Source: Syntrophales bacterium (GTDB lineage: Bacteria > Desulfobacterota > Syntrophia > Syntrophales > PHBD01). From it: a stretch of 64,000 nt of DNA. The stretch covers positions 3,040,001-3,104,000 of the forward strand of contig OY764159.1 in assembly GCA_963668175.1 (NCBI GenBank), in the 5' to 3' direction. Each line of letters opens with the position of its first letter. The first letter of the stretch is position 1. Both the position numbers and the translations under genes were made by a program. This document shows, in pieces, positions 33,220 to 38,900 of this stretch. The notes beneath the pieces are model-generated. The model saw only the letters and a list, made by a program, of their open reading frames with translations. It made no database searches and had not been told where the DNA came from.

Positions 33220-33540
33220 ATGAGATCTTTGAAGATACGCGAATTAATCAACGACCAGAAACGGAAGGCCGTCATCACGGCCGCCTCGGGCATGAGCCTC
33301 TTTACCGCCAGTCTGCTCTTCAGCAACTATTTTAAAGGCCTCTTTTCCGTGGCCGCCGTCGGCTTCGTCATTGCCGCAGCCGGGATTCTGTTCCTTCAAT
33401 TCGGCCTCAGCTGCCCCCGGTGCCGTGGGCGGATCGGCAACGTCATCAACAATTCCCTGGGGCCCTTTACGCTGTCGCCGAAAATCCGCTACTGCCCCTT
33501 TTGCGGCGTCGCCCTCGATTCCGACCTCAAACGTCGGTAA
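33220..33540 (+). CDS. Small 2-TM membrane protein with C-terminal zinc ribbon
   Basis: AAGGAG RBS; two hydrophobic helices; CPRC..CPFCG. Confidence 0.75.
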   Translation: MRSLKIRELINDQKRKAVITAASGMSLFTASLLFSNYFKGLFSVAAVGFVIAAAGILFLQFGLSCPRCRGRIGNVINNSLGPFTLSPKIRYCPFCGVALDSDLKRR

Positions 33541-33774
33541 GGACGGAGATTTTCCCTCCGGCCCGGGAGGTATTATCGACCCTGCCGGACTTTCTACCTA
33601 CGGCGTCCATCTATAACCGGCCATATCTTGCCTCCATCTCCGCGGCGGCACGGCGCGGTCAACCGACAACCGCTTGCCGCCGCTTTTCGTTCCGCCGTCT
33701 TTCCGCAAGTCCCTGTGGAAGCGCAGCGGTATTTATACATATATAATTATTTCAGACTGTTAGACATTTATTCC

Positions 33775-33866
33775 AAAAAAAAAGAAGGCAGGGTGCTGGT
33801 GGCCCTGCCTGTTGAGGGGAGTTAGAAAGGAGATTTGGAGTGATGGGTGTTTGTGGTTACATCTTT
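33775..33866 (-). ncRNA. Candidate trans-acting sRNA (~90 nt)
   Basis: TTGTCT-N17-TATTCT promoter (33901-33873); C/A-rich body; AGGCAGGG/CCCTGCCT hairpin followed by U9. Confidence 0.65.
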
Positions 33867-34103
33867 AACTGTAGAATATGAACTTAATATCTGAAAGACA
33901 ATACGGGATAAGTAGTGGTTTTACGGTAAGCAAAAACTACCATATAGAAAAGTGTGAGATATCATCCGGATAATCGGTGGGCTTTGCTGTTTCCGGACCC
34001 TGCGTTTCCCCGGCGGTCCGGCGGGATGCCTGAGGATAGCGACAGGTCCCGTCCGCCGCCACGGCATCCGGCGGACAGGATATACTACGGAGTCGGAAAG
34101 GAG

Positions 34104-34541
34104 TTAGGCCAGCGCCTGGAGACCGGCTTTCGCGATCTGCCCGTCTTCACCGGCGGTCCCGCCGGAAACGCCGATGGCGCCGACGATCTTGCCGTCCATA
34201 AGGATCGGCAGGCCGCCCTCGACGGTGCAGATGCCGTCCAGCGTGAAAATCGCCAGCCTGCCGTCGCTGATGGCATCTTCAAAGGCTTTGGTCGGTCTTT
34301 TGTAGGCTACGGAACATTTCGCTTTATGAATGGCCACATCGACGCTGCCGAACTGGACGGCATCGAAGCGCTCCAGGTAAAGGAGATTACCGCCCGCATC
34401 CACAATCGCGATGGCGACGTTGACTTTCATGAGCGTCGCCGCCGCCGCGGCTCCGGCGGCCACCTTTTTGGCTGCAGCGAGCGGAATGTTGGCCCCGTAA
34501 GGATTGACCATTTGCTGCGATACTATTTTTCTTTCGGCCAT
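34104..34541 (-). CDS. GlcG/HbpS heme-binding family protein
   Basis: AIAIVDAGG, AIHKA, EGGLPI..DGKIVGAIGVSGG..EDGQIA; start 34541 with GGAGG RBS. Confidence 0.88.
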   Translation of the reverse strand: MAERKIVSQQMVNPYGANIPLAAAKKVAAGAAAAATLMKVNVAIAIVDAGGNLLYLERFDAVQFGSVDVAIHKAKCSVAYKRPTKAFEDAISDGRLAIFTLDGICTVEGGLPILMDGKIVGAIGVSGGTAGEDGQIAKAGLQALA

Positions 34542-36483: not shown

Positions 36484-38226
36484 CTATGCGGCGGAAGACT
36501 TTCCCGCCCCGGAGGTTTCGGCATCGAGGTCCATCTGGAAGCGTACCGGACCGCGGCAGCCTTTGCCGAAGACCTTGTGGACGGCGCACGCGGAGCCCGG
36601 ATCCGTCCAGGAGGTCGCGATGGCGCCGTGGCCTTTCGGAAAAGGCGTCACCTCGACGTCGATGAACCCGACCGGCGACAGGGCCGACTCACTGTCCACG
36701 AGATCGTCCCCTTCCGCGTAGCAGAGGAGCCATTTGATGCCCCGCTCCGGAATGCCCCGGTAATTCAAGGTCTTGCCGAACATCGTCACCGGGAGCGTCC
36801 CGTCTTCGGAAACGGGTATCGTATAAGAGTCGAAACTGAGCTTCGTGATCGCCTCCGGCAGGTCGGAACGGTCGTAGATCAGCCAGTTGTTCAGGGCGGC
36901 GGCCGTCTTGCTGATGTTGATCTTGTGCCCGTCGTGGCCGCTGAACAGCATCAGGTCCTTGTAAAGGGTCGCCACCGGGGCCTCCTTCTCCATGCTTTTC
37001 AGCTTGTAGACCCAGCTCATGACCTTGCCGTCGACGACGCTGTTGCCGTTCGGAAGCTGCTTCAGGGCGTAATCGAGATCGCGGAAGCGGGGCGGCAGAT
37101 GCTCCATGTATTCCTTGAGGGACTTGCTCCTCGTTCCGTCCATCGGCGCCACGCAGGTGATGAGCGCATCGACGAGGCCGTCGAGCTCGCCGGACAGGAT
37201 ATCGAGGAGCGCGATGAAACCGCCCTGGCAGAAGCCGTTCAGGGTGACCTTCCTTCCATGGATCGCTTTCAGTTTTTTGCAGATAACCCGCGTGTCGGCC
37301 GCGTCATCCTCGCCCGTCATCAGCTGCACCGCCGGGGTCATGTGAATGTCCTTCAGGATCCTGATATAGGTCGGGATGCCCTGGTCGGCGAAGGCGTGGA
37401 CATAGCTCTTTTTCTCTCCCGGCAGAAAGGCCAGGATGTTCGGGCCCAGGACGTACGGGTGCATGATGAGGACGGGCTTGCCGCCTTTCTTCGCCTTGAT
37501 GGACTTGTCCCGGGAAAAGACCTGGTAGACGATGAAACGTTCCGTTTCGACGATCTTTTTATAGCCGCCGTCGTCAAAGTGAAAGCCGAATTCGGGCTCG
37601 ATCGCCCGGATCGCCTCCGGATAATCGTAAATGACCGTCTCCAGGAGATGGTCCAGTTTCGCCGTGTAATCGCGTAGCACACCCGCATCCTGGGTCGAAA
37701 TGGCCTTTACGACGGCATCGAAGGCCTTTTGGCCTTCGGCCCTGTGAAACTGGAGCAGGTCCTTGGCCGTGCCGTTCACCGACTCCCCGGCGATCTGGAT
37801 GTTGAACTTGAGGAGTTCCAGGTAATCCATGGCGCTCTCCAGGGGTGTGCGGTTCACGAGCTTCTCTTTCTCAAGGTTCAGGAAGGCCTCAAGGGCCGTC
37901 CAGTAAGGATTCATGAACTCGCTTAAGTACTTGAGCAGCCCCAGGAAGTAATGCTGGCCCGCCTCCAGGGATTCGGTCGTCGTTTCGGCCGTCGATTCGA
38001 TCCCGCTCATCCGTTCTTCCATGTTCAGACGGATGAATGTTTTGAGGTTGTTCCAGAACGGCAGCGCCGCGTCTTCGGGGTAACTCATGAGACCCAGCCA
38101 GTACTTCTGGTTCTCAAGCCATGCCCGGCCTGCCGTTTCAATGGCCTTGTCCCGGTAATCCTCCAGCTTTCGCCTTTCGTCTGCGAATATCTCGTATGCC
38201 TTCGTCGGCCACAGCGTATGCTTCAT
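36484..38226 (-). CDS. PHA synthase (PhaC)-like alpha/beta hydrolase with long helical N-terminus
   Basis: PVLIMHPYV, NGFCQGG lipase box with Cys, GDDLVD, KGHGAI. Confidence 0.65.
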   Translation of the reverse strand: MKHTLWPTKAYEIFADERRKLEDYRDKAIETAGRAWLENQKYWLGLMSYPEDAALPFWNNLKTFIRLNMEERMSGIESTAETTTESLEAGQHYFLGLLKYLSEFMNPYWTALEAFLNLEKEKLVNRTPLESAMDYLELLKFNIQIAGESVNGTAKDLLQFHRAEGQKAFDAVVKAISTQDAGVLRDYTAKLDHLLETVIYDYPEAIRAIEPEFGFHFDDGGYKKIVETERFIVYQVFSRDKSIKAKKGGKPVLIMHPYVLGPNILAFLPGEKKSYVHAFADQGIPTYIRILKDIHMTPAVQLMTGEDDAADTRVICKKLKAIHGRKVTLNGFCQGGFIALLDILSGELDGLVDALITCVAPMDGTRSKSLKEYMEHLPPRFRDLDYALKQLPNGNSVVDGKVMSWVYKLKSMEKEAPVATLYKDLMLFSGHDGHKINISKTAAALNNWLIYDRSDLPEAITKLSFDSYTIPVSEDGTLPVTMFGKTLNYRGIPERGIKWLLCYAEGDDLVDSESALSPVGFIDVEVTPFPKGHGAIATSWTDPGSACAVHKVFGKGCRGPVRFQMDLDAETSGAGKSSAA

Positions 38227-38471
38227 GATCCCTCCCCCTCTCCCTGAAAGCTCCCTCAAGCACGATGCCCCTTTTTCCTATGCCCGCATTTTACACGGAA
38301 GGTTTCCGAGTTGAGCGACTTTCTCCGGTCTGTCGCCCTGCCCGTAAGCCTGCCGGCCGTCATCATCGCCCCTCGACATGACGCAGGGGACCTCCGGAAA
38401 TATATGGAACACGTCCAACCGATGAATTGTCTTTTTAAAATAATGGCCGCAGCGCCGTTTGTCAAGACATA

Positions 38472-38607
38472 ATGTTGCAATGCAATATATTTTCGCATCT
38501 ATCCCATAGGTCTGCATTTATTCATATCCATATTATATATTTATATCTTTATATACATCCTGAAACGATTTTCATCCGTGATTCCTGACAACATATTGCA
38601 CCGCAAT
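38472..38607. promoter_or_regulatory. Two PhaR-like TTGC-N3-GCAA boxes upstream of the phaC-like promoter
   Basis: TTGCAATGCAA at 38475-38485 and ATTGCACCGCAAT at 38595-38607; minus-strand TTGACA-N17-TATTTT adjacent. Confidence 0.5.
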
Positions 38608-38900
38608 GCCGCCGCCCCGCCGCCGGAAACGGCGCGCACCTTCATGGCGGCAGCCGTTGCCGCGGCCTATTTCAGACTTGACATCCGTATCCCGAAGGGC
38701 ATAAGAGGAGGACATGCTCCGCCGGTATTTCGGACGAATCGGGGGCTTGGCATAACCGAACATCTTGATTTATGCCTTCTTGCCTTGTCCGGCGGTGCGG
38801 GATACGTTATGGTCATTCCGGCGTCCCCGCGACGGGAGGCGTTCTCGAAGAACGGCCATGAAGCAACAGCGATACATTATAGAATGGAAAGGATGACAAC

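Follow-up and report, generated by a model that had tools for sequence, protein, structure and literature searches.

A candidate small RNA with a G-free, C-rich body and an orphan terminator in the convergent gap downstream of glcG in a Syntrophales bacterium

In a Syntrophales bacterium, the minus strand between two convergent genes carries an intrinsic terminator that works in one direction and is not assignable to a neighbouring gene, and ahead of its hairpin lies an accessible stretch of 50 nt without a single G. These two elements, the 563-nt gap between the genes and the AT-rich island inside that gap all exceed chance, while a promoter-like sequence, an inverted repeat, the count of CUCC motifs and the predicted pairing with ribosome-binding sites are all at chance level. 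A small RNA is a plausible reading of the locus. The sequence elements that an earlier, sequence-only reading had described here are all present on the minus strand between the convergent genes, with the weight now on features other than those first stressed. That some discrete small RNA ends at this terminator is given slightly better than an even chance; the narrower proposal, a non-coding minus-strand RNA of ~85-95 nt that ends at 33775-33810 and carries a C-rich seed, is tentative and stands somewhat below even.

The window, meaning the whole 64,000-nt stretch of DNA that was analysed (64 kb), has a G+C content of 59.8%. The locus within it is composed of the following features:

33220-33540, plus strand: gene for a 106-aa membrane protein with relatives (GC3 0.75; Shine-Dalgarno sequence AAGGAAGGAG)
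33642-33690, plus strand: terminator-like hairpin GCGGCGGCA...TGCCGCCGC, then TTTTCGTT (stem-loop to 33683)
33690-33998, no strand: AT-rich island, GC 0.41 and locally down to 0.31, around the whole candidate unit
33775-33866, minus strand: predicted small RNA of ~92 nt, its 5' end inferred from a start ~7 nt past TATTCT
33775-33810, minus strand: intrinsic terminator with an 8-bp stem, a 9-nt loop, UC and U9 (stem scan and fold)
33810-33859, minus strand: G-free stretch of 50 nt, 44% C, predicted to be single-stranded, the proposed seed
33873-33901, minus strand: promoter-like TTGTCT-N17-TATTCT, an 8/12 match to sigma-70
33913-33942, no strand: imperfect inverted repeat TAGTGGTTTT-N10-AAAACTACCA (on the minus strand TGGTAGTTTT-N10-AAAACCACTA), centred ~61 bp upstream of the inferred start
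34047-34080, minus strand: GC-rich hairpin with a 12-bp stem and no U tract, 24 nt past the glcG stop
34104-34541, minus strand: glcG (HbpS-like/GlcG; Pfam PF03928, 2.7e-30)

The gene upstream of the candidate on the same strand, glcG, starts with an ATG at 34541 that is preceded by the Shine-Dalgarno sequence GAGGAGGG. The closest named relatives of its product come from MAGs labelled Deltaproteobacteria or Syntrophales (~70% identity), and one metagenomic protein cluster reaches 97% identity, followed by close relatives at 78% and 77%. A search of the GTDB species representatives with GlcG peptides retrieved neither the genome nor the genus of the window, its best match being at 60%, against the 97% metagenome relative in the protein collection; the host seems, from these comparisons, to belong to a poorly sampled, uncultured lineage. 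The convergent ORF at 33220-33540 on the plus strand is a real gene. Its 106-aa product has 10 full-length metagenomic relatives (51-91% identity, the closest at 91%, 82% and 81%) and a C-terminal CxxC...CxxC arrangement of the form CPRC...CPFC; it falls in no curated family, the sole match being a sub-threshold one to DUF7575.

Both genes have a hairpin of their own near the stop codon. The one at 33642-33690 on the plus strand probably terminates the 106-aa gene, and the one at 34047-34080 may be the 3' end of glcG itself, either as a U-less terminator or as a stabilising 3' hairpin. The ~160 nt of non-coding DNA that separate the 106-aa gene from the AT-rich island (33541-33700; GC 0.60-0.65) fold strongly (z = -2.4). 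Directly upstream of the island, positions 33961-33974 form a near-perfect 14-bp palindrome, ATTATCCGGATGAT, with no second good copy in the window.

The gap between the two genes is wide. In a GC3-based gene map of the window the other five convergent pairs are separated by 24, 39, 71, 97 and 112 nt, and the 563 nt found here are about five times the next largest value. The island at 33690-33998 is the largest of 28 AT-rich islands in the window; the majority of the remaining ones lie at the 5' ends of genes. Plasmid and phage collections contain no match to the locus, which thus gives no sign of a mobile origin. A search for terminal inverted repeats and target-site duplications flanking the locus returned just short, chance-like matches, and a search for tRNA and tmRNA genes found none.

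The terminator is well defined. The arms AGGCAGGG (33810-33803) and CCCTGCCT (33793-33786; CCCUGCCU as RNA) form a perfect stem with 6 G-C pairs among its 8, and after TC the strand runs into T9 at 33783-33775, so the 8-bp GC hairpin with U9 of the sequence-only reading is present. T runs of at least 7 occur only twice on both strands of the 64 kb; the T9 is one of them, and the other, a T7, lies 77 nt past a stop codon. On the plus strand no T run follows the hairpin, which means that the terminator serves the minus strand only. A standard terminator scan, restricted to loops of at most 8 nt, passed over it, the loop here having 9 nt. In a scan of the window for perfect stems with T-rich tails, two hairpins stood out as clear gene terminators, at distances of 18 and 27 nt from their stop codons, and the distance from the glcG stop to the candidate hairpin is 294 nt. 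The hairpin with its U9 is an orphan: it is far from any gene end and not assignable to a neighbouring gene.

Ahead of the hairpin, ~55 nt of A/C/U-rich sequence separate it from TATTCT, and the predicted RNA would start ~240 nt past the glcG stop. The G-free part of this sequence (33859-33810) is the longest run in the window that lacks either G or C. Shuffling the island 20000 times produces a run of this length in 0.43% of cases, and in Markov simulations of 64 kb (n = 100) the longest run has a mean of 30.9 and a maximum of 50. A 50-nt body without G cannot fold on itself and would stay single-stranded. The RNA fold agrees with the unstructured body that had been described: the terminator hairpin alone is stable (-15.6 kcal/mol, z = -2.3), the predicted unpaired probability is at least 0.9 across the C-rich part, and the C-rich motifs thus lie in unpaired regions. 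As an ORF, the minus-strand body offers ATG-TAA alone, and the short plus-strand ORFs have no genuine homologues, in keeping with the earlier view that the unit contains no credible ORF.

The three motifs that had been read as anti-Shine-Dalgarno sequences are CTCC at 33840-33837, CTCC at 33832-33829 and CTCCCCTC at 33821-33814 on the minus strand (CUCC, CUCC and CUCCCCUC as RNA), all within the G-free stretch. They are present and unpaired, but their clustering does not exceed simulation. The window has 12 clusters of three CTCC within 32 nt, where simulated sequence has 8.7 +/- 2.9; the CUCC count of the body is at chance level, not enriched. A separate resemblance concerns the 15-nt sequence CTCCTTTCCGACTCC directly after the glcG stop (34089-34103, minus strand), which recurs in the core of the candidate as CTCCTTTCTAACTCC (33818-33832, minus strand) with 13/15 identical positions. 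The 13-base pattern common to the two has two exact matches in the window, at these sites alone. Duplication, shared function or chance could each account for it, and it links the two regions weakly.

The sequence-only reading recognised no family for the candidate, and the covariance-model searches agree at three settings. Rfam 15 (4227 models) gives 0 matches at the gathering threshold across the whole window and 0 matches at E<=10 in 901 nt around the candidate; with the laxest filters, 186 nt yield 3 matches of 9-13 bits against gathering thresholds of 45-65 (E 5-7). A search among distant relatives likewise returned no homologue. A genome scan seeded with GlcG collected 32 loci, all with at most 60% protein identity, from other phyla and none of the lineage of the window, and when the candidate was compared by blastn and nhmmer with the 32 loci and the window, it retrieved itself alone, with neither homologue nor paralogue.

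Several known groups of small RNAs share parts of this layout, and action through unpaired C-rich motifs that bind Shine-Dalgarno regions is well established for small RNAs (PMC2790875; PMC3771888). In the staphylococcal Rsa RNAs, RsaE and RNAIII, C-rich unpaired motifs are described as pairing with the Shine-Dalgarno sequence and blocking formation of the initiation complex (PMC2790875). The candidate resembles the Rsa RNAs, RsaE/RoxS and RNAIII, as portrayed there, in combining several C-rich unpaired motifs with a classical 3' terminator (PMC2790875). It differs in that the Rsa RNAs mostly have a 5' hairpin and carry their motifs in loops, whereas the candidate is a linear G-free stretch with no 5' hairpin; it also belongs to a different lineage and has no sequence or structure match to the Rfam families. 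The Xanthomonas RNA sX13 is reported to direct C-rich motifs at G-rich motifs near translation starts (PMC3771888), and in the terms of that account the two share a G+C-rich Gram-negative host and C-rich motifs (PMC3771888). Unlike sX13, which has three stable stem-loops with 4C/5C apical loops, the candidate has none beyond the terminator and no Rfam match.

The modular small RNAs of enterobacteria, in the outline given by PMC3771888, begin with a single-stranded seed and end in a Rho-independent terminator that carries a U tail. The layout of the candidate, in which an unstructured targeting domain leads into the terminator hairpin and its long U tract, is that modular design as outlined there. 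The differences are that no A/U-rich site stands directly before the hairpin (CCCUCAACA occupies this position) and that the seed of the candidate is unusually long and G-free. For 3'-derived small RNAs, PMC7821165 distinguishes type I, with its own promoter within or just after the coding sequence, from type II, which is processed. Measured against that scheme, the candidate is similar in lying on the same strand downstream of glcG, where it would share the last terminator of that unit; it is dissimilar in starting ~240 nt past the stop, with a separate hairpin between the coding sequence and the candidate. With no model match and no stem-loops beyond the terminator, the candidate is a member of none of these families.

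The promoter and its surroundings carry less information. TTGTCT (33901-33896), a 17-nt spacer and TATTCT (33878-33873) are in place, and an overlapping alternative, TTCAGA-N16-TACAGT, also scores 8/12. The window contains 193 matches at 8/12, 50 of them in ~3800 AT-rich positions, from which two to three are expected in this island. Upstream of the 23 ordinary genes listed, the best promoter match varies between 6 and 11 of 12 positions (median 8), and the candidate does no better than this median. Several clear TTGACA-17-TAnnnT promoters occur in the window, which indicates that the organism uses this promoter type; the score of the candidate promoter is what AT-rich DNA yields by chance and does not discriminate. 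The AT-rich island around it does speak in favour of a promoter. A sigma-54 promoter was considered by eye at TGGTAGTTTTTGC and rejected, because its GG and GC are two bases too close for the consensus spacing.

The inverted repeat upstream of the -35 element fares similarly. It is present, with 8/10 positions complementary as DNA and 9/10 as minus-strand RNA when one G-U pair is counted, and a repeat as good (8/10) appears at least once in 58% of 300 shuffles of the island (mean 1.4 per shuffle). No second copy or half-site cluster exists elsewhere in the window. Since the repeat is at chance level and has no second copy in the window, the activator control that the sequence-only reading had attached to it is left without support.

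The same reading had proposed specific pairing with GGAG ribosome-binding sites. GGAGG-type Shine-Dalgarno sequences precede 23/32 of the starts listed, under a start-picking rule that itself favours such starts; the host uses strong GGAGG-type sites, so anti-Shine-Dalgarno pairing is chemically plausible. Specificity does not follow. When 41 initiation regions of the window are scanned for local duplexes, the body reaches a mean of -11.7 kcal/mol against -10.9 +/- 0.8 kcal/mol for shuffled bodies, and shuffled bodies are equal or better in 7/40 cases on the mean and in 17/40 on the best value, which leaves the proposed pairing without support beyond chance. A looser scan of 32 regions gives p ~0.05; cofold target predictions were discarded as over-permissive. 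The predicted pairing is a property of base composition, and a C/U-rich strand of any other sequence would perform roughly equally.

Among the individual regions, the best predicted partner is the start region at 38226 (minus strand; -20.1 kcal/mol), and the Shine-Dalgarno sequence of the 33220 (plus strand) gene, with 10 contiguous bp of predicted pairing, is also among the best. The start at 38226 belongs to a gene at 36484-38226 (minus strand) whose 580-aa product falls in neither a Pfam nor an NCBIfam family and which has an exceptionally G-rich leader (38190-38260, minus strand), with GAGGGAG...GGGAGAGGGGGAGGGAUC ahead of the AUG. Beyond it lies a 606-nt divergent intergenic region (38277-38883) that includes an AT-rich island (38393-38617, GC 0.38) and, at 38515-38561, a G-free, AT-rich run of 47 nt; the whole-window Rfam search at the gathering threshold has nothing in 38277-38883 either.

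How such an RNA might work can be outlined from these elements. An RNA would be made from the minus strand and would end at the hairpin with U9. Its source would be either a weak sigma-70-type promoter of its own in the AT-rich island or the glcG transcript, as in type I or type II 3'-derived small RNAs. The C/U-rich stretch may then act as a seed that pairs with purine-rich, GGAG-type ribosome-binding regions, and this pairing would block translation initiation or alter mRNA stability. Long U tails of this kind bind an RNA chaperone in other bacteria.

As a small transcription unit that ends in a terminator, the ~90-nt RNA of the sequence-only reading has indirect support from the orphan terminator, the G-free stretch, the gap and the AT-rich island, and none from the promoter. 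The strongest alternative, which that reading had itself named and which is less likely than the small RNA, is that the hairpin with U9 is the terminator of glcG, which would give this gene a ~330-nt 3' UTR that shields the 106-aa gene from antisense transcription, with no separate small RNA. The C-rich motifs would then act in cis, for example on the glcG ribosome-binding site (cf. the icaR 3' UTR), or not at all. The hairpin directly after glcG lacks a U tract and so may not terminate, the candidate promoter does not exceed chance, the sequence CTCCTTTCCGACTCC after the glcG stop recurs in the candidate body at 13/15 positions, and both long 3' UTRs and pairing between 5' and 3' UTRs are documented in the account of PMC7821165. 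A long UTR is nevertheless at odds with the two clear gene terminators, which follow their stops at 18 and 27 nt rather than 294, and has no need of an AT-rich island with a GC minimum of 0.31. Nor does the glcG initiation region rank in the top ten of the partners predicted for the body among the 41 regions scanned.

Another possibility is that the terminator alone is functional and the remainder is AT-rich spacer with chance motifs. The chance-level promoter, inverted repeat, CUCC count and target pairing all agree with such a spacer. Signal at the locus came from three features alone, namely the terminator without a gene of its own, the run without G and the unusually wide gap between the convergent genes; reading the sequence for a promoter, an operator or motifs yielded none. 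An inert spacer is improbable all the same, as it leaves both the 50-nt G-free run and the 563-nt gap unexplained.

The G-free, C-rich stretch might instead load or sponge a protein, serving as a Rho utilisation site on read-through transcripts or as a platform for an RNA-binding protein. Sites at which Rho loads (rut sites) are C-rich, G-poor stretches, and 50 nt without G, 44% C and unstructured, would suit this role; the lack of a target signal beyond composition also fits a function without pairing. Rho would, however, be redundant with a strong intrinsic terminator directly after the site, and no repeated protein-binding motif (GGA, AAnAAnAA) is evident in the sequence, which makes a protein site quite improbable.

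A bolder version of the small-RNA reading is a long shot. It holds that the candidate is a lineage-specific RNA of an uncultured Desulfobacterota-like bacterium whose G-free arm was selected to stay naked, and that it would compete generally with the ribosome for strong Shine-Dalgarno sites. The central CUCCUUUCU of the candidate would, on this view, copy the anti-Shine-Dalgarno tail of 16S rRNA. Such an RNA would damp many mRNAs with strong sites at once instead of a few specific targets, and the lack of target specificity beyond composition would fit this behaviour.

Two further readings, which turn on short ORFs, are very unlikely. In the first, the plus strand is functional and the minus-strand RNA is its cis-antisense regulator. 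Antisense to the candidate, the plus strand carries a perfect Shine-Dalgarno site, AAAGGAG (33826-33832), followed by a 12-codon ORF (ATG at 33843) that shares an ATGA overlap with a 31-codon ORF (33878-33973). The spacing from AAAGGAG (10 nt to the ATG, 7 nt to a GTG), the overlap and a TATAAT at 33742-33747 (plus strand) speak for translation. Across the window, however, 11/23 AGGAG-N5-10-ATG sites open ORFs of at most 33 codons, which makes the arrangement no more than chance would give. A search of 1.84 billion representatives with the 31-aa ORF retrieved no genuine homologue, the 2 matches being weak per-repeat ones to repeat proteins of 924 and 1803 aa, and a 65-aa ORF on the plus strand has no match. 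The peptides are not hydrophobic, and the strand offers no -35 element, no terminator and no downstream gene.

In the second, the element is the 5' leader or attenuator of a 48-codon Cys-rich ORF (MYKYRC...; 33740-33597, minus strand) that begins 35 nt past the U tract. The ORF exists, bears a weak resemblance to Zn_ribbon_8 (E 0.11) and has an AATAAT 5 nt ahead of its ATG, with which it could be leaderless, but it has no Shine-Dalgarno sequence, its GC3 is ~0.56 by hand count against 0.69-0.86 for real genes, its Pfam match of 13 bits is far under the cutoff of 34.4 bits with none in NCBIfam, and the supposed leader is unstructured, unlike riboswitches and attenuators. Pfam and NCBIfam searches of the short ORFs gave nothing except this one match.

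A literature search for small RNAs found none for Syntrophales and almost nothing for Desulfovibrio, with a bioRxiv preprint as the only relevant item. The candidate would leave the understanding of small-RNA regulation unchanged. If it exists, it would add one more independent example of a C-rich seed directed at ribosome-binding sites, and it would stand among the very few small-RNA candidates described in an anaerobic lineage that is little studied and mostly uncultured.
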